Shown here: positions 9,653 to 22,957 of the stretch, one piece after another
How the letters are laid out: each line of letters starts with the position of its first letter
How positions within the stretch are numbered: the stretch's first letter is position 1
NCBI GenBank assembly: GCA_001823545.1
Contig: MHUV01000002.1
Location: forward strand, 1 to 57,206
DNA from: Candidatus Yonathbacteria bacterium RIFCSPLOWO2_01_FULL_43_27
GTDB lineage: Bacteria > Patescibacteriota > Minisyncoccia > Phycocordibacterales > UBA1550
Reading direction: 5' to 3'
DNA: 57,206 nucleotides
Notes under the pieces: generated by a model
What the model saw: the letters and a program-made list of their open reading frames with translations, nothing else
What the model was told of the DNA's origin: nothing
Databases searched by the model: none
Translations under genes and position numbers: made by a program

Positions 9653-9807
9653 CTCCCTGCCTCCCTTAGAGTTTTTATATGATGTGCAATTGTCAAAGAA
9701 CGACAATTTATCCTATATATATTATAGCAAATTTATGTAAAATGTCAATAGTTCAATAAAGGTTAATGGATATTTCTTTCTTTAAGGATTTCATCAGATT
9801 ATTTGTG

Positions 9808-9887
9808 GGCACGGGGAGATTTGAACTCCCAACCCTTGCGGGATGCGCTTCTGAGACGCACGCGTATACCAATTCCGCCACGTGCCC
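9808..9887 (-). tRNA. tRNA-Leu (anticodon CAG), type II with a long variable arm
   Basis: The reverse complement reads GGGCACG-TG-GCGGAATTGGTATACGC-G-TGCGT[CTCAGAA]GCGCA-TCCCGCAAGGGTT-GGGAGTTCAAATCTCCC-CGTGCCC-A. The acceptor pairs fully. The D-arm matches bacterial tRNA-Leu. Confidence 0.8.
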
Positions 9888-10193
9888 ATATTGTATTTGT
9901 ATTGAAGAGGGAAGCGTGTCTATTTTTGTGCCGAGGAGAGGACTCGGTCAAGCGCTCGCTCGTCGTCACCACGTTTTTCGCTCTCTCCCTACAGGAGCAG
10001 TACACCTTTTGGCTCTTTTGTTTCGCCTGCTCACAAAACAGCTTAAAAGGTCTTGCGGAAGCTCCACGTATTCGCTTCCTTACCTGCTTGTGCGACCCAT
10101 CGAGCACGACGGGTACCCGCACTCGCTTTCGAGTCCTCTCCTCCGCCTACAAAATTTAGTTACGAAAAGCTACCACTTTTCGTTTCCAATTTT

Positions 10194-10236
10194 GTGCCGA
10201 GGAGAGGACTCGAACCTCCACAGGTTACCCCTTCCT
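10194..10236 (-). pseudogene. Orphan 3' portion of a Leu-type tRNA (variable arm, T-arm and acceptor 3' strand) with no contiguous 5' half
   Basis: The reverse complement reads ...GGGGTAACCTGTG-GAGGTTCGAGTCCTCT-CCTCGGC-A. It is nearly identical to the 3' part of tRNA-Leu(UAG). No matching GCCGAGG acceptor strand or valid anticodon stem lies in the adjoining 5' sequence. Confidence 0.5.
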
Positions 10237-10343
10237 AATGCCTGTTTCGCGTACGCTCAACAACGGCATTTGCGCATACGCGCACCGGATGAAAATCAAA
10301 GCAGTTTGATTTTCATTCCCGCGTCAGTTCGTCACGCGCAAAG

Positions 10344-10425
10344 TGCTGGGGAGAGGACTCGAACCTCCACAGGTTACCCCGACTGCTCCTAAGGCAGTTG
10401 CGTCTACCAATTTCGCCACCCCAGC
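10344..10425 (-). tRNA. tRNA-Leu (anticodon UAG)
   Basis: The reverse complement reads GCTGGGG-TG-GCGAAATTGGTAGACGC-A-ACTGC[CTTAGGA]GCAGT-CGGGGTAACCTGTG-GGAGGTTCGAGTCCTCT-CCCCAGC-A. Confidence 0.8.
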
Positions 10426-10437
10426 ACTTTAGGCGCG

Positions 10438-10467
10438 ACTTGCGTCTACCAATTTCGCCACCTCGGC
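10438..10467 (-). pseudogene. Orphan 5' portion of a Leu-type tRNA (acceptor 5' strand and D-arm only)
   Basis: The reverse complement reads GCCGAGG-TG-GCGAAATTGGTAGACGCAAG. The D-arm is identical over 21 nt to tRNA-Leu(UAG), then the sequences diverge. Its acceptor GCCGAGG is exactly complementary to the CCTCGGC of the 3' fragment at 10194-10236. Confidence 0.5.
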
Positions 10468-10957
10468 TTCTTCATAACAACTTACACTAAATAACAAGAA
10501 AAAGCGAGTTTTGAGATTGATCTGAATCTCGTTTAGTGACGTTTGTGGTCACAGATAATTTCCTCGCCGTCGCTCGGAAATTTCGCAGTCACAACTTTTT
10601 GCTCGACCGCCGTCTCGCAAAAGTCGCGACCCCTCCTCACTCGTTTTTCTTGCTAGAAAAACGAGTTCCGGCCTTGCGAAGCTCCATGTATTCGCTTCTC
10701 ACCTGGCTCGCTGTTTTGTTTTGCTAAACAAAACATGCTTCGCCTTGCACAAACTAAAAATCTGCCGCAGGCGCTGTTTTTCTTTACGTTTGAATTGCTA
10801 TTTTTGTGGTCACAAGTCACTAAGTCTACTCGTGCGAGTACGCACTGCGTGGACGTAAGTGCTCGCGACCCCGGCTCGTGGTTTTGTGTGCTCACAAAAC
10901 ATCACTGCGCCTTGCACAATGAGAAAATGGTGCGCAGGCACCATTTTCTTTTCATTG

Positions 10958-11030
10958 TGCACCCACCTGGACTCGAACCAGGGACCATCTCCTTAAGAGG
11001 GAGTTGCTCTACCAACTGAGCTATGGATGC
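10958..11030 (-). tRNA. tRNA-Lys (anticodon CUU)
   Basis: The reverse complement reads GCATCCA-TA-GCTCAGTTGGTAGAGC-A-ACTCC[CTCTTAA]GGAGA-TGGTC-CCTGGTTCGAGTCCAGG-TGGGTGC-A. The acceptor has one G-U pair. The anticodon stem has an A-A mismatch at 27-43. Confidence 0.7.
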
Positions 11031-11142
11031 AGACCTATATTCAAAGAGTATACACAAAAATAAAGATTTTGGAAGAGTTTGTGCTTTGAGTTTAATAATT
11101 AGAGGCAAGTAAGATTAACCTAAGTTTTTAAAATACACGAAA

Positions 11143-11205
11143 TCCGTATTAGCTCCTCGGCTCGGAAGTGAGAAAGATTACTTTCTCACTTCACTCGCTC
11201 TACGT
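11143..11205 (+). repeat. Dispersed roughly 60-nt repeat (family A), copy 1; it contains the hairpin GTGAGAAAG-atta-CTTTCTCAC
   Basis: GTATTAGCTCCTCGGCTCGGAAGTGAGAAAGATTACTTTCTCACTTCACTCGCTCTACGT. A near-identical inverted copy lies at 20281-20340. Confidence 0.8.
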
Positions 11206-11243
11206 CGCTAATAATATTGCTCGTAGTTCCTGATTTGTTTAGT

Positions 11244-11324
11244 GGGTCAGGAGGGAATCGAACCCTCAATCCTTTCGGCGGGAAATTTTAAGTTTCCTGT
11301 GTATACCATTCCACCACTGACCCT
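11244..11324 (-). tRNA. tRNA-Leu (anticodon UAA)
   Basis: The reverse complement reads GGGTCAG-TG-GTGGAATGGTATACAC-A-GGAAA[CTTAAAA]TTTCC-CGCCGAAAGGATT-GAGGGTTCGATTCCCTC-CTGACCC-A. Confidence 0.8.
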
Positions 11325-11326
11325 TT

Positions 11327-11803
11327 TTAGGATTTTTTCTTTCGATTAAGTCCTCGATGCGTTGGTTTTAAACTGTGGCAATTTGGACAAAGAATCCGAA
11401 GATTCTCTATTCTGTTGTCTGTTCTGTCCCCATTTATATGGTCAAGCTCAACTGGGATTCTACCATCAATCGACTTTTTCGCCCAGCCACATTCTTCGCA
11501 TTGTGAATTTTTTAAATTATCTTTGAAGAGTCGTCGTTTCAGCTTGTAGCTTTGGAAACGGCTATCTCTCGTAAGGATCTTATTGAGAGGTATGAGTGGC
11601 TTACCGATTCCCTTTAGTCCTTTACTCCATCCAATGCCAGTAAAGTGTTTAATATCCAGACCGTAATCTTTGACGGCATTGTTAATTTGCGCATAATTTC
11701 CTCCTGCCTCTTTTAGATTGAGTTTTTTGAGAACTTGCCGTACGCTTGTAGAGTTTTTAACAGCGACCCTCAATTGTTCTTCTGTCCAACTTCGTTTCCT
11801 CAT
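11327..11803 (-). CDS. HNH endonuclease (homing-endonuclease-like), free-standing within the tRNA island
   Basis: C-terminal ELDHINGDRTDNRIENLRILCPNCH is the classic HNH core, with an additional CEECGW zinc-finger pair. The N-terminal region (WTEEQLRVAVKNSTSVRQVLKKLNL...GGNY) looks like a small DNA-binding module. The start is placed at MRKRSW. The stop lies 3 nt from the tRNA-Leu(UAA) 3' end. Confidence 0.85.
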   Translation of the reverse strand: MRKRSWTEEQLRVAVKNSTSVRQVLKKLNLKEAGGNYAQINNAVKDYGLDIKHFTGIGWSKGLKGIGKPLIPLNKILTRDSRFQSYKLKRRLFKDNLKNSQCEECGWAKKSIDGRIPVELDHINGDRTDNRIENLRILCPNCHSLKPTHRGLNRKKKS

Positions 11804-11914
11804 GCATAAAAGTATACCATAATGGAAGGCATAGAGGAATACATGTACATAGTTGCCTACCTTTTTAATTAAGAAACTCAATTATATTGCAATTCTTTCT
11901 TGAGGCGTGGGCTC

Positions 11915-11980
11915 CTCTCGGTCACGAGTTACTAAGTGTGCTCGGGCGACTACGCCCTGTGCGCACTAAGTACTCTCGAC
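11915..11980 (+). repeat. Dispersed roughly 65-nt repeat (family R), copy 2
   Basis: GTCACGAGTTACTAAGTGTGCTCGGGCGACTACGCCCTGTGCGCACTAAGTACTCTCGACCCGGGCTCG. Its reverse complement recurs at 20641-20705 with a few substitutions. A diverged copy lies at 10806-10877. Confidence 0.8.
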
Positions 11981-12085
11981 CCGGGCTCGCTGTCGCTTTG
12001 CGACATGCTCCGCCTTTCGATTCTCGACGCAGGCAAAGCAGTTTGCCTGCTCCCACGCCAAGAAAATTCTCTAAGAATTTTCTTG

Positions 12086-12157
12086 AGGCGTGGGCGAGAA
12101 TCGAACTCGCGCATAGGGGATTTGCAGTCCCCCGCCTTACCACTTGGCCACCACGCC
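12086..12157 (-). tRNA. tRNA-Cys (anticodon GCA)
   Basis: The reverse complement reads GGCGTGG-TG-GCCAAGTGGTAAGGC-G-GGGGA[CTGCAAA]TCCCC-TATGC-GCGAGTTCGATTCTCGC-CCACGCC-T. The discriminator U73 is the Cys identity element. Confidence 0.85.
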
Positions 12158-12225
12158 GAACATTAATTTTTATAACCTAGAACCATTCTTCGCAATCAAG
12201 TTTGTATCAAAACCTAGCACTCATC

Positions 12226-20247: not shown

Positions 20248-20273
20248 AACAAGCGCTCTCGAGCGCTTGTTTA
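20248..20273. terminator. Perfect palindromic hairpin after clpB
   Basis: AAACAAGCGCTCTCGAGCGCTTGTTT. Confidence 0.7.
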
Positions 20274-20280
20274 ATTAGCG

Positions 20281-20340
20281 ACGTAGGACGAGTGGAGTGA
20301 GAAAGTAATCTTTCTCACTCCTGAGTCGAGGAGCTAATAC
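20281..20340 (-). repeat. Family A repeat, copy 2 (inverted), about 95 nt upstream of tRNA-Tyr
   Basis: The reverse complement of 20281-20340 matches 11143-11205 at roughly 90% identity, including the GTGAGAAAG/CTTTCTCAC hairpin. Confidence 0.8.
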
Positions 20341-20435
20341 AAGAGTGGATACCCAGCCCTCTGGGGCGGTAAATGTATGAGCGAAGCAAATACCTTTTGA
20401 AAGGGACTTATTCCCGGGTACACACTGCTTTTATT

Positions 20436-20519
20436 GCGTAGGTGGTAGAGCGGTCAATTACAACAGACTGTAAATCTGTCGCCCATTGGGCTACGCAGGT
20501 TCAAATCCTGCCCTACGCA
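20436..20519 (+). tRNA. tRNA-Tyr (anticodon GUA), type II
   Basis: GCGTAGG-TG-GTAGAGCGGTCAATTAC-A-ACAGA[CTGTAAA]TCTGT-CGCCCATTGGGCT-ACGCAGGTTCAAATCCTGC-CCTACGC-A. Confidence 0.85.
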
Positions 20520-20567
20520 CAATACAAAAAACGCCCCTCAAGGGGCGTTTTTTGTATTGTGCGTAGG
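20512..20567. terminator. Terminator hairpin embedded in a 56-nt perfect palindrome that includes the tRNA-Tyr 3' acceptor strand
   Basis: CCTACGCACAATACAAAAAACGCCCC-tcaa-GGGGCGTTTTTTGTATTGTGCGTAGG. The core hairpin plus T-run is at 20526-20553. Confidence 0.75.
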
Positions 20568-20640
20568 AGCGACTGAACTGCTTCAGTCGCGTGCAGGATT
20601 TGAAAGGCGGAACATGTTTTTGTAATCAAAAACAGTGAGC

Positions 20641-20705
20641 CGGGGTCGCGAGTACTTAGTGCGCGCAGGGCGTACCCGCCCGAGCACACTTAGTAACTCG
20701 TGACA
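20641..20705 (-). repeat. Family R repeat, copy 3 (inverted relative to copy 2)
   Basis: CCGGGGTCGCGAGTACTTAGTGCGCGCAGGGCGTACCCGCCCGAGCACACTTAGTAACTCGTGAC equals the reverse complement of 11915-11980 with a few substitutions. Confidence 0.8.
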
Positions 20706-20770
20706 AAATCCTACGCACAAAATCTTACCCCACAAAGCGAATGCTTTGCGGGGTAAGATTTTTGTAGCGT

Positions 20771-20801
20771 AACAAAAAACGCCCCTTAAAGGGGCGTTTT
20801 T
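20771..20801. terminator. Bidirectional rho-independent terminator (RNase J and the tRNA-Tyr-side element)
   Basis: AAAAAACGCCCC-ttaaa-GGGGCGTTTTT. It is a near copy of the hairpin at 20526-20553. Confidence 0.75.
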
Positions 20802-20818
20802 ATATACACGAGAATCTT

Positions 20819-22957
20819 TTACAATCCCAAAATCACAGGAATCACAATCGGGCGCTTTGCGGTTTCTTGGAAAAGGAAGCGTGCGACGGCGTCGGTGGTG
20901 TGGTCCTTGATGTAGTCAAAGTCAATCTGTTTTGAACCCGTAGAAAGCTCTTCGATAGAATTTTTTGCGATAACGCGTGCTTGGCGAAGAAGGTCTTGTG
21001 ATTCGCGAAGATAGACAAAACCACGTGAGATAATATCAGGGGACTTCGTAATTTTACCTGTAGTACGATCAATGGTGGCAATGATAACAAAGATACCGTC
21101 TTGTGAGAGCATTTGGCGATCGCGAAGCACCACCTCCTGAATACTGCCCACTGAGAATCCATCGACAAGCACCAGACCGCGTGGAGCAGTTTCTTTCAGT
21201 GCAACAATATTCTTTCCTTCGTTCTGAATCTCAATAACCATACTGTTGTCAGGAATAATGATGCGATCATCGGTCATTCCTGCCTCTTTCGCGATGTTGC
21301 CGTGTACGCGAAGGAGATAGTGGTATCCGTGAATAGGGATGAAGAAACGAGGTTTTACTTTCTGATGAATCCAGAGTGTTTCGTCGTGACATGCATGACC
21401 AGATGAGTGTACGTCAGCATTCTGGTAATGAATGATGGTTGCACCCTGTCGTGAGAGATTATCCTTGAGTTTCTGGACGCTCCTCTCGTTTCCAGGGATA
21501 ACGGAAGAAGAGAGGAGAATGGTATCACGTTTGTTAACTTTCAAGTATTTGTGGGTTTTGTTTGCTGCGCGCATGAGGGATGCAAACTCGTCTCCCTGTG
21601 CTCCTGTTACGAGCATAATAATGCGATCAGGTGGATAATTGTCCATTTCTTCGATAGGAATGAACGTCTCTTTCTTTGCGGTAAGGAACCCACTTTCACG
21701 CGCGATATCCACATTATTTTTCATACTGCGTCCATCAAGAACGATCTTTTTTCCGAGCACCTCTGCGGTGTCGATGATCTTGATAAGGCGCTCAAGAAGG
21801 GAAGCGAAGGTTGCTATAACGAGGCGTCCTTCAGTGTTGCGGATGATCGTTTCAATATTTTGAAGTACAATTCGTTCAGGGAATGAAAAGCCTGGGCGCT
21901 CTACGTTGGTTGAATCTGCCATAAGGAGAAGGTTTTGCGTATTCTCAATCCTTGCCCAATGATCTTCTTCGTCAAGTGTAGGCACACCATTATTGTGATC
22001 AAGCTTGAGGTCGCCTGTATGAATGATGTTACCGTACGGCGTTTCGATGATAGCCCCCATAGCATCAGGAATCGTGTGGGTCACCCCAAAGAACTCAACT
22101 TTGAAATCGCCAATCGTCGCACGCTCGTTTTTTTCTACCACGCGGATATCAAGTGCGGGAAGGTGAGGGAATTCATCTTGGCGCTTTTTGATGAGCAAGG
22201 TGCTGAGATTGCGTGAGTAAATAGGCGGGTTGCCGATTTTCTCCATAATGTAAGGGATGCTACCGATATGATCGAGGTGTCCGTGAGTAACGATAATCGC
22301 TTTTACTTTATGTTTGCGTTCCTCAAGATATTTGGTATTAGGAAGAATGTAGTCGACACCTGGGGTATTGTCCTCGCGGAACTGGAGGCCAGCGTCAATA
22401 ATAAGAATCGTATCTTTGTACTCAATACAGGTCATGTTGCGTCCGATTTCTTCAACGCCACCGAGTGGCACGATACGAATATCGCCGTCCTTAAGAGGGG
22501 GGATAATACTTTCGGTGTTTTGTGCAGGAAGTGGGATGCTCATACGTCGTGCATCAGCTTTCTCTCTTCCGGTAGTGTGCTTAACGCGTGAAGTGCTGCG
22601 AGGTATATTTTCTCCGTGGGAACCACGTGAACCGGGACGACTTCGAGAAGACATCCCTCCCTGAGGGCCCCTGCGCATGTCGCGCGGTTGACCGAGTGAT
22701 GCTCCACCACTTGGCGCCCTGTTGTCGTGTCGAGGGAACGAGCGATTATCCTGTGATGCAGGGAATGATGATCTCAATCCATGAGGTGCACTTGAAGACG
22801 CAGGTCGGTGACCTTCGTTTGTTGTTCCATATTGTGCCCTCTTTGATACCGCGCTTCGTGGTCCGCGCAGTGAGCGGTCTCGGCGGGGGAATCGACGTAC
22901 GTCATACCCGTCACCTTTAGGTCTCTGATTGTTTTGTCCTTCGTTGTTCGTCTCCAT
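20819..22957 (-). CDS. rnj: Ribonuclease J (metallo-beta-lactamase/beta-CASP) with a roughly 160-aa basic, RG/S-rich N-terminal extension
   Basis: IVPLGGVEEIGRNMTCIEYKDTILIIDAGLQF. HGHLDHIGSIPY. A beta-CASP region and a C-terminal domain. The N-terminus (NQRPKGDGYDVRRFPRRDRSLRGPRS...) is low complexity. Confidence 0.9.
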   Translation of the reverse strand: METNNEGQNNQRPKGDGYDVRRFPRRDRSLRGPRSAVSKRAQYGTTNEGHRPASSSAPHGLRSSFPASQDNRSFPRHDNRAPSGGASLGQPRDMRRGPQGGMSSRSRPGSRGSHGENIPRSTSRVKHTTGREKADARRMSIPLPAQNTESIIPPLKDGDIRIVPLGGVEEIGRNMTCIEYKDTILIIDAGLQFREDNTPGVDYILPNTKYLEERKHKVKAIIVTHGHLDHIGSIPYIMEKIGNPPIYSRNLSTLLIKKRQDEFPHLPALDIRVVEKNERATIGDFKVEFFGVTHTIPDAMGAIIETPYGNIIHTGDLKLDHNNGVPTLDEEDHWARIENTQNLLLMADSTNVERPGFSFPERIVLQNIETIIRNTEGRLVIATFASLLERLIKIIDTAEVLGKKIVLDGRSMKNNVDIARESGFLTAKKETFIPIEEMDNYPPDRIIMLVTGAQGDEFASLMRAANKTHKYLKVNKRDTILLSSSVIPGNERSVQKLKDNLSRQGATIIHYQNADVHSSGHACHDETLWIHQKVKPRFFIPIHGYHYLLRVHGNIAKEAGMTDDRIIIPDNSMVIEIQNEGKNIVALKETAPRGLVLVDGFSVGSIQEVVLRDRQMLSQDGIFVIIATIDRTTGKITKSPDIISRGFVYLRESQDLLRQARVIAKNSIEELSTGSKQIDFDYIKDHTTDAVARFLFQETAKRPIVIPVILGL

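Follow-up and report, generated by a model that had tools for sequence, protein, structure and literature searches.

Free-standing homing endonuclease genes occur in the tRNA regions of phages, among them SegB of T4 and the HNH endonucleases of T5. GOLLD and ROOL are large, ornate RNAs supported by covariation, and they typically lie beside tRNA genes. Integrases that target tRNA genes were reportedly divided by Williams in 2002 into sublocation classes, with a direct repeat that runs from a tRNA loop to the 3' end and leaves the tRNA restored. Within Patescibacteria, group I introns interrupt the anticodon loop of tRNAs, match the Rfam model RF00028 and in some cases contain HNH genes (PMC13011429). 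The locus described here lies in a 57,206-nucleotide (nt) stretch of contig MHUV01000002.1 (assembly GCA_001823545.1) from Candidatus Yonathbacteria bacterium RIFCSPLOWO2_01_FULL_43_27, a very small bacterium of groundwater; this stretch is referred to below as the window. It comprises five minus-strand tRNA genes within positions 9800-12160, an HNH endonuclease gene, and a set of short structured elements, here called trailing elements, which follow the tRNA genes.

The spacers of this cluster had been described in a first-pass annotation as a mosaic of short dispersed repeats and tRNA fragments. The repeats are real but not random, being whole and nested copies of two families of structured elements of ~90-230 nt. 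Each element lies 13-90 nt downstream of a tRNA or transfer-messenger RNA (tmRNA) gene, on the same strand, and is built as a conserved three-way junction held between an inverted and a direct copy of the segment of that tRNA from the T loop to the 3' end. This architecture, as well as a sixth copy behind tRNA-Tyr (20521-20723), had escaped the first-pass annotation. The locus as a whole probably, though far from certainly, combines three layers: an inherited tRNA operon, an HNH homing cassette, and small selfish elements of at least two families that are specific for tRNA and tmRNA genes.

Structured elements trailing the tRNA genes

The elements behind tRNA-Cys (minus strand) and tRNA-Tyr (plus strand) share one order of parts. 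The 3' end of the tRNA is followed by a hairpin, the reverse complement of the acceptor 3' strand, a CTGC-loop hairpin, the reverse complement of the T stem and T loop (Cys, CGAGAATCGAA; Tyr, GCAGGATTTGAA), a shared core, and finally a direct copy of the tRNA 3' end. The core consists of GAAAGGCGGARCATG, a hairpin, CAGYGAGCCNGGGTCGNGAG, a long hairpin and CTCGTGAC. In the window the two cores are 84% identical and their tRNA-derived arms differ; the direct copy of the Cys element forms a 17-nt perfect repeat, 7-8 nt of flank included. Covariance models were built for both families (model R1 for type 1, model R2 for type 2), and in a search of 1.1 Mb four of the model R1 matches fall within the window. 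The elements are as follows.

11896-12084, minus strand: type-1 element behind tRNA-Cys; model R1 match at 11902-12027, 71.8 bits; folding z = -8.2
12052-12095, minus strand: 20-bp palindrome of the Cys element, joining the tRNA 3' end and flank to their complement
12031-12048, minus strand: CTGC-loop hairpin of the Cys element
12016-12026, minus strand: inverted T-arm copy of the Cys element, CGAGAATCGAA
11896-11912, minus strand: direct copy of the Cys element, GCCCACGCCTCAAGAAA, a 17-nt perfect direct repeat
10790-10956, minus strand: hairpin (10923-10956) and type-1 unit behind tRNA-Lys; model R1 match at 10790-10922, 62.6 bits; the unit starts with TTGTGCAAGGCG
10541-10757, minus strand: second, composite unit; model R1 matches of 34.7 and 9.9 bits
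10686-10757 and 10541-10554, minus strand: outer type-1 unit of the composite, P1-P2 and its end GTGACCACAAAC, respectively
10569-10684, minus strand: inner type-1 unit of the composite, interrupting the outer unit after the GGT of P3
10678-10698, minus strand: hairpin GAAGCGAATACATGGAGCTTC, the 40-nt motif of the first-pass annotation
9923-10193, minus strand: hairpin (10154-10193) and composite element of an older tRNA-Leu; 24-nt inverted arms; folding z = -6.2
10130-10153 and 9928-9946, minus strand: inverted and direct copy, respectively, of the older-Leu composite
Within the older-Leu composite, minus strand: diverged type-1 core (model R1, 13.8 bits) with a 141-nt insert
9984-10054, minus strand: type-2 core of this insert (model R2, 32.6 bits), accompanied by hairpin GAAGCGAATACGTGGAGCTTC at 10058-10078
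20521-20723, plus strand: type-1 element behind tRNA-Tyr; model R1, 74 bits; its order is palindrome (27-nt arms), inverted T arm GCAGGATTTGAA, core, direct copy CCTACGCAC

Two repeats had been singled out earlier. The motif of ~40 nt recurs as claimed, with GAAGCGAATACRTGGAGCTTC at 10058-10078 and 10678-10698 against 0.01 occurrences expected. The second, TTGTGCAAGGCG, is present at 10741-10752 and 10908-10919, and of a further copy claimed at 10031 only the part GCTCACAAAAC exists. It had also been considered that such repeats could be promoter or terminator elements common to all tRNA loci; in this simple form the idea does not hold, the elements being patchy and no simple terminators, yet the family is specific for tRNA loci. 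Beyond the Tyr element (region 20521-20800, plus strand) stand two more hairpins, the last of which, AAAAAACGCCCCTTAAAGGGGCGTTTTT, duplicates the terminator-like hairpin directly after tRNA-Tyr, and the gene for RNase J (20819-22957, minus strand) converges on this trailer.

The spacers of the cluster have a G+C content of 50-60%, as opposed to 29-39% in the flanking AT-rich intergenic DNA, and fold well above shuffled sequence (z from -4.5 to -10). Type-1 cores are characterized by a P2 helix with a GGA/GA internal loop and by a conserved base of P3, GGUCG/UGACC, with a G·U pair, while in type-2 cores P2 is long and P3, with its GUA loop, is short. The type-1 cores, eleven of which gave a good alignment, show compensatory changes in 10 of 17 pairs; the type-2 cores show them in 14 of 19 pairs (MAFFT and RNAalifold). 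Model R1 gives 39 matches in 1.1 Mb, 31 of them at E < 1e-3. In their alignment 94% of cells are paired as compared with 69% after shuffling, double changes are seen in 22 of 23 pairs, and the covariation score is 0.565 versus 0.175 for shuffled sequences and 0.05-0.09 with the partners slid. The corresponding figures for model R2 are 38 matches, 92.7% paired cells and a score of 0.43. Alignments built with a model lean towards the structure of that model, a bias from which the MAFFT/RNAalifold results are free. The G·U pair is kept in 28 of the 39 model R1 sequences, and the fold is therefore assigned to the tRNA-sense strand.

When compared with Rfam 15, which includes GOLLD, ROOL, HEARO, introns of groups I and II, self-cleaving ribozymes and tmRNA, only tRNA passes, the other matches (E up to 5) being noise from miRNA-like hairpins. 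Full-text searches of the literature returned no description of the elements, the nearest paper being that on group I introns in Patescibacteria tRNAs (PMC13011429). The family is apparently undescribed.

The same arrangement is found behind many other tRNA genes. In 81 sequences, the last 16 nt of the tRNA recur 76-317 nt downstream in 30 of 243 tRNAs and upstream in none. Across all loci, a perfect 15-mer copy of the tRNA's own 3' end was found for 67 of 427 tRNAs, at a distance of 60-330 nt in 66 of these. The copy starts right after the GGTT of the T loop in 12 of 31 clean direct repeats and within 1-2 nt of it in most of the others, and it extends to the discriminator base plus 1-32 nt of flank. 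About 30 of the 33 best matches of model R1, and 21 of the 27 best of model R2, lie within 150 nt downstream of a tRNA on the same strand. In all, about a quarter of the sampled tRNA genes carry a structured appendage of 100-200 nt derived from their own 3' end. The closest relative in GTDB, L011 (the L numbers designate related loci), follows the same logic with a different core behind tRNA-Leu(TAA) and tRNA-Lys.

As an independent test, metagenome contigs were scanned for the signature of the type-1 core only. It was found in at least 120 loci, whereas 2.9 million viral contigs contained two matches. Among the 124 metagenome matches listed, 71 lie no more than 200 nt behind a tRNA on the same strand, with at least 30 anticodons represented, and 18 more are at contig edges. 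In the nhmmer search, 80 of the matches listed have a tRNA of the same strand upstream, 8 are preceded by another unit, 3 by tmRNA, and one by a tRNA of the opposite strand.

Several variants were encountered in these loci. Type-1 cores follow the tRNA-like 3' end of tmRNA genes in L081, L130, L156 and L195. In two contigs (L161 and L116) they come right after the stop codon of rplL, encoding ribosomal protein L7/L12, and a local hairpin replaces the tRNA-derived helix. Mirror-image variants (L135, L194, L144, L132 and L148) have a duplicated 5' fragment of the tRNA before the core and the intact tRNA downstream; the fragments reach the T stem, the anticodon stem or the D loop. A single long repeat, of tRNA-Trp with 726 nt between the copies (L054, 4213-5030), encloses an open reading frame (ORF) on the opposite strand that resembles Asp/Glu racemases.

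The tRNA operon and its HNH gene

The five minus-strand tRNAs, Lys and Cys included, had been recognized by the first-pass annotation, and they were accepted by both predictors, ARAGORN and the Rfam tRNA model (57-68 bits), in full agreement. The genes of the cluster and its surroundings are listed below.

12085-12157, minus strand: tRNA-Cys(GCA), first gene of the operon, downstream of rbfA; 100% identical in the closest relative, L219 (ARAGORN, Rfam)
11327-11806, minus strand: HNH gene, 159 amino acids, ATG at 11806, stop 3 nt from tRNA-Leu(TAA) (Pfam, PHROG)
11242-11323, minus strand: tRNA-Leu(TAA), allele replaced with respect to L219 (ARAGORN, Rfam)
10957-11030, minus strand: tRNA-Lys(CTT) (ARAGORN, Rfam)
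10343-10425, minus strand: tRNA-Leu(TAG), intact, acceptor GCTGGGG (ARAGORN, Rfam)
9805-9887, minus strand: tRNA-Leu(CAG), last gene of the operon (ARAGORN, Rfam)
20436-20520, plus strand: tRNA-Tyr, a sixth tRNA, outside the cluster and ~8 kb away

The gene order IF2-RbfA-Cys-Leu(TAA)-Lys-Leu(TAG), in part followed by Leu(CAG), recurs in ~35 related Paceibacteria loci with spacers from ~3 nt to several kb, which indicates that the cluster is an ordinary conserved operon, whose variable part is the filling of the spacers. The designation “tRNA island” is thus misplaced, as the order is conserved across Paceibacteria. Neither does the operon unite all three leucine isoacceptors, as had been stated, since relatives carry a fourth, Leu-CAA, elsewhere, and Leu-GAG is present in related metagenome loci. 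Homologs of IF2 place the window in Paceibacteria, the best relative in GTDB being a Yonathbacteria genome with 72% IF2 identity; the window is of the same clone as GCA_001825065.1. The remainder of the window contains housekeeping genes (ribosomal proteins, SecY, ClpB, RNase J, GyrA, ArgRS, MetRS, RecA, FtsK).

The HNH protein matches the Pfam families HNH_3 (32.1 bits) and HNH (25.8 bits), both above cut-off, and over its full length the phage HNH family PHROG 10822 (7e-45), in line with its original assignment. It contains the HNH motif with the zinc-binding core CEECGW...DHINGD...N...CPNCH, having both the HNH residues and the CxxC...CxxC(H) pattern. A comparison with solved structures gave no informative match to the protein. 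More than 7000 homologs were found in the database search. Identity is 55-91% among the best 120 of them, which belong to Paceibacteria, Moranbacteria, Daviesbacteria, Levybacteria and Liptonbacteria. Across classes it amounts to 66-91%, so that the HNH protein is better conserved than IF2, which is ~50% identical within a much smaller phylogenetic range.

The position of the gene is fixed. In 12 of 12 loci (the window and 11 others) it abuts the 5' end of tRNA-Leu(TAA). Homologs of 158-164 amino acids lie between tRNA-Cys and tRNA-Leu(TAA), ending at the latter, in L024, L050, L060, L061 and L070; in L222 the gene likewise adjoins this tRNA. The same holds for five distant contigs with unrelated neighbouring genes, where the stop codon is placed anywhere from an 18-nt overlap with the tRNA 5' end to 9 nt upstream. 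The presence of the gene, on the other hand, is patchy. It occurs in ~6 of 60 syntenic loci and, among close relatives, in the window and L222, being absent from L219 (RbfA 95% identical), L221 and L011. Between the window and L219, tRNA-Leu(TAA) is only 78% identical, with differences in the acceptor and T stems, as opposed to 100% for tRNA-Cys and tRNA-Lys. A fixed site with patchy presence, excess conservation and a replaced adjacent marker together typify free-standing homing endonucleases. The HNH protein is accordingly predicted to be such an enzyme, which would cleave its target and co-convert the adjacent tRNA-Leu allele (anticodon UAA).

The proposal that a homing endonuclease and small mobile elements had invaded the cluster is therefore broadly right, with the correction that the HNH gene is independent of the repeats. 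A link between the two was considered and rejected, as elements are found without HNH and HNH without elements. Throughout Patescibacteria the HNH cassette keeps to the 5' side of tRNA-Leu(UAA).

The tRNA fragments reported for the spacers were located as a 5' piece of tRNA-Leu at 10427-10465 and 3' pieces at 10194-10232 and 9928-9946. The first two frame the intact tRNA-Leu(TAG) as follows.

10427-10465, minus strand: 5' fragment (positions 1-26) of an older tRNA-Leu(TAG), found by repeat analysis; acceptor GCCGAGG as in L011
10233-10342, minus strand: trailer of the nested tRNA, made of element-type hairpin modules, with a CTGC-loop hairpin at 10289-10316
10194-10232, minus strand: 3' fragment of the older tRNA-Leu(TAG), reaching from the anticodon loop to the 3' end and lacking 5 nt; identity with the intact tRNA, 95%

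The intact gene lies between the halves of the older copy and has 13-nt inverted flanks (10331-10351 and 10419-10439). The fragments share their acceptor, GCCGAGG/CCTCGGC, with the L011 tRNA-Leu(TAG), and the composite element (9923-10153) agrees with this older acceptor. The intact and the older tRNA differ by two compensatory acceptor pairs, while 31 nt of the variable and T arms are identical. This comparison indicates that a 230-nt insert carrying a complete replacement tRNA split the older tRNA-Leu between positions 26 and 27. A group I intron or split-tRNA reading of this arrangement was rejected, as the inner tRNA is intact, the outer one has the 5-nt deletion, and no intron model matches.

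The ORFs across 9766-11108 had been suspected not to be genes, and indeed the plus-strand ORFs are without Pfam support and lie on tRNAs or structured RNA. One of them, called in public assemblies as a gene for a 208-amino-acid protein at 9766-10392 (plus strand), is antisense to two tRNAs and to structured elements, lacks Pfam support and is almost certainly spurious.

Further features were noted in the cluster and its relatives. A perfect sigma-70-type promoter at 9721-9748 (minus strand; TTGACA, 16 nt, TATAAT, with an upstream TG) comes right after tRNA-Leu(CAG) and precedes a gene of the SPFH/Band-7 type. A 68-nt hairpin repeat, ATTAGCGACGTAG...AGTGAGAAAGTAATCTTTCTCACT...GAGCTAATAC, is present behind tRNA-Leu(TAA) (11140-11215, minus strand) and ahead of tRNA-Tyr (20270-20345, plus strand). 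Its two copies are ~92% identical, with a compensatory A-U to G-C change in the stem, and in the 223 loci searched it is seen in this species only, with no match in Rfam. Several Paceibacteria (L008, L015, L016, L023, L042, L056 and L062) show inversion or head-to-head duplication, with respect to infB-rbfA, of single tRNA genes or of the entire Cys/Leu/Lys/Leu cluster, which suggests frequent local inversions. Judging domains by eye, LAGLIDADG-like ORFs are found in other spacers of the cluster (L056, 12107-12748; L040, 12024-12791), and the Leu(TAA)-Lys spacer of L060, L055 and L061 houses the housekeeping genes for glutamate racemase and alanine racemase.

Proposed insertion and turnover, and competing explanations

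The comparison of occupied and empty sites shows what was gained. In L222 the spacer between tRNA-Leu(TAA) and tRNA-Lys measures 58 nt and contains the Lys promoter. In L221 this promoter region comes after the second copy (R2) of the tRNA 3' end, so that everything between the upstream copy (R1) and R2 is extra. The Cys slot shows the same pattern, being empty in L011 and filled in L219, L221 and the window. Cores of the two types, and in one case a third, occupy the same slots.

Tyr slot: type 1 in the window, L026 and L051; type 2 in L009 and L010
Cys slot: type 1 in the window, L059 and L031; type 2 in L021 and L045
Lys slot: type 1 in the window, L060 and L040; type 2 in L030, L026 and L031; a third core in L011

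In the composite at 10541-10757, the GGT of the outer P3 after which the inner unit breaks in is a T-loop-like site. The inverted copy (R') still complements the live tRNA where R2 has decayed, as in the Cys unit of the window and in L025, L026 and L031; in the Cys unit P1 is broken and R' is the exact complement of TTCGATTCTCG. Taken together, the empty and filled sites, the swapped cores, the similarity of the Cys and Tyr cores, the nesting and the tracking of the tRNA by R' favour repeated insertion and turnover. Core similarity is modestly higher within genomes (0.61) than between them (0.51), which is not decisive. As to the 5' arm of the element, two of three informative cases favour an origin as the complement of the tRNA 3' strand over one from the tRNA's own 5' strand.

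It is hypothesized that the present state arose in three ways at once. The operon for Cys, Leu-UAA, Lys-CUU, Leu-UAG and Leu-CAG would have been inherited vertically downstream of infB-rbfA. The HNH cassette would spread among Patescibacteria through cleavage and repair, dragging the adjacent tRNA-Leu(UAA) allele along by co-conversion. The trailing elements would fill the remaining spacers and the tRNA-Tyr trailer, each attached to its gene in the T loop, in most cases between T55 and C56. Insertion would regenerate the tRNA 3' end, leaving an intact tRNA upstream (R1) and a displaced copy from the T loop to the 3' end beyond the element (R2), with R' and the conserved three-way-junction core between them. 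The element is presumably read through from the tRNA promoter, and selection may maintain the RNA fold in the tRNA sense. New copies could land in the T-loop-like GGT|CG sites of older ones, giving the nested and tandem arrays that had looked like a mosaic. An element might persist either because the fold is needed for propagation or because it is tolerated or used by the host.

A number of observations weigh against this explanation. The Cys element is orthologous in three species (window, L219 and L221; RbfA 79-95% identical) and shows compensatory changes in the distal P3 hairpin, the Lys slot is occupied in all five relatives compared, and such long-term retention fits host function as well as selfishness. 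The locus is identical in all 23 contigs of this species, with zero strain polymorphism. No transposase, integrase, recombinase, reverse transcriptase (RT), TnpA, TnpB or IscB gene was found within the 57-kb window, and no autonomous element, nor any enclosed mobility gene, among tRNA 3' ends repeated in direct orientation within 9 kb. The direct repeats vary from ~10 to 47 nt, unlike the footprint of a transposase, and to our knowledge no mechanism gives direct, inverted and direct target copies around a conserved insert. An origin by fold-back at a terminator hairpin fits the palindromes of the Tyr and Cys elements (20-27 nt) and was rejected, as gapless palindromes are no commoner at element-bearing tRNAs. 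Finally, the co-conversion of tRNA-Leu(UAA) with HNH is based on the single close genome pair of the window and L219.

It is possible, albeit doubtful, that the elements are RNA-based genetic elements of a new class, or form an RNA-guided system, in which the junction scaffold is fused to a 13-25-nt antisense of the tRNA or tmRNA 3' end (R') that directs insertion, processing or targeting. The scaffold might then bind a protein or be catalytic, R' might pair with the tRNA gene, its transcript or foreign attP-like copies, and the direct copy might be a competitor or a relic.

The main rival to selfish elements, regarded as rather unlikely, is an RNA in the tRNA trailer that benefits the host: a vertically inherited, cis-acting module for maturation or insulation, with tRNA-derived arms homogenised by local gene conversion. 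Such a module could act as a pseudo-substrate, its acceptor/T-stem-like helix attracting RNase P, RNase Z or RNase III for cleavage of the precursor behind the tRNA, or else form a stable 3' cap. The strict co-orientation with a nearby tRNA, the RNA-type covariation including the conserved G·U pair, the orthologous Cys element with its compensatory changes, and an L222 copy that follows changes in its own tRNA all agree with a host module, as does the fact that most tRNAs of the window carry an element in a streamlined genome, which is expected to purge junk. The patchiness among close relatives counts against it: nothing fills the Cys slot of L011 or the Leu(TAA) slot of L222, and the spacers of L041, L036 and L029 measure only ~3-60 nt. 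Unrelated core families in one slot, nested, tandem and decayed copies, and copies behind rplL and beside tRNA 5' fragments likewise speak against it. Moreover, the discriminator base is paired in the palindromic cases, unlike in an RNase P substrate, and a role in processing needs no sequence identity with the neighbouring tRNA.

The direct repeats could alternatively be attL and attR scars left at the T loop of tRNA and tmRNA genes by integrase-mediated islands or prophages whose content has almost all been lost. The targets would agree, being the T, anticodon and D loops of tRNA and tmRNA genes, and so would a direct repeat that spans from loop to 3' end, restores the tRNA and leaves a displaced R2 to decay. 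This origin is nonetheless improbable: in 66 of the 67 perfect repeats the copies are separated by 60-330 nt, an integrase is enclosed by none of the 67, the sequence inside is an RNA fold, conserved and with covariation, that is common to hundreds of loci and not a random remnant, and an inverted copy is no feature of att sites. Very improbable is the decay of tandem tRNA duplicates that had arisen by unequal recombination in a recombination-prone cluster, possibly stimulated by HNH and involving no distinct element. In its favour, the outer part of an element looks like a tRNA of which the acceptor stem, a single hairpin and an extended T stem are left, the nested tRNA-Leu has real tRNA halves on either side, and tRNA genes are inverted or duplicated in the relatives L023 and L062. 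Against it, the 5' arm is complementary in the Watson-Crick sense to the 3' strand, down to non-palindromic T-loop bases (TTCAAAT gives ATTTGAA), and is not the tRNA 5' strand, with two of three informative cases pointing to the complement; the cores are conserved sequence families unrelated to tRNA, and elements are present in loci without HNH.

Comparison with known systems

Genomes of Patescibacteria are among the smallest in bacteria, yet about a quarter of the tRNA genes sampled drag structured appendages along. If the trailing elements are mobile, they would colonise essential RNA genes harmlessly and without an encoded enzyme, and their target-derived inverted repeats would fall outside the described pathways of transposition and integration. 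If they are functional, they would represent a new step of tRNA and tmRNA maturation or surveillance in an uncultured phylum. An RNA-guided system, if that is what they are, would mean tRNA-templated mobility or targeting without known precedent, widespread in Paceibacteria. In practical terms, models R1 and R2 form a ready RNA family, which accounts for false ORF calls and for “tRNA fragments” in public annotation. The cassette of HNH and tRNA-Leu(UAA), with its predicted cleavage, would be a clean natural case of homing with tRNA co-conversion in chromosomes.

The HNH gene is similar to T4 SegB and the T5 HNH genes in being small, stand-alone, located between tRNA genes and patchy, with the neighbouring tRNA allele replaced. 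Unlike these, it is chromosomal and fixed at the 5' end of tRNA-Leu(UAA) in very distant lineages, and its homing cleavage is predicted.

The trailing elements and the group I introns of Patescibacteria (PMC13011429) are both structured RNA insertions at tRNA genes of the same phylum. The tRNAs of the window, however, are intact, none matches RF00028, and the element stands behind the gene and not within it. With GOLLD and ROOL the elements have in common that they are structured, non-coding, adjacent to tRNA and supported by covariation. They are much smaller, have no Rfam match, are chromosomal in Paceibacteria instead of phage-borne, and are built from the tRNA 3' end. Single-stranded DNA elements of the IS200/IS605 type, which insert without duplicating the target, and the guide RNAs of TnpB/IscB differ in that the 57-kb window contains no TnpA, TnpB or IscB gene and direct repeats are present, and a retron non-coding RNA would be accompanied by an RT gene, which is found neither in the cluster nor in the window.

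Closer parallels are offered by two kinds of mobile DNA. MITEs (miniature inverted-repeat transposable elements) and other small bacterial repeats (Correia/NEMIS, RPE, REP/BIME) are similarly small, non-coding, multi-copy, hairpin-forming, patchy, and nested or in tandem. Instead of conserved terminal inverted repeats, the trailing elements have arms that equal the 3' end of the adjoining tRNA and are not the same in the Cys, Tyr, Leu and Lys copies; their duplication is of 10-47 nt and not of fixed length, and they occur almost exclusively behind tRNA and tmRNA in one orientation. The tRNA-targeting integrative elements (prophages, integrative and conjugative elements, genomic islands) also use the loops of tRNA and tmRNA as targets, keep the gene intact through a supplied or duplicated 3' segment, and leave the displaced segment as a direct repeat from the T loop to the 3' end plus a few flanking bases, as observed here. 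The trailing elements measure 60-330 nt and not kilobases, have no integrase and no room for an ORF, and add an inverted target copy and a covarying three-way junction. They thus resemble miniature tRNA-targeting integrative elements or MITEs, yet depart from both in the very features by which these are defined.

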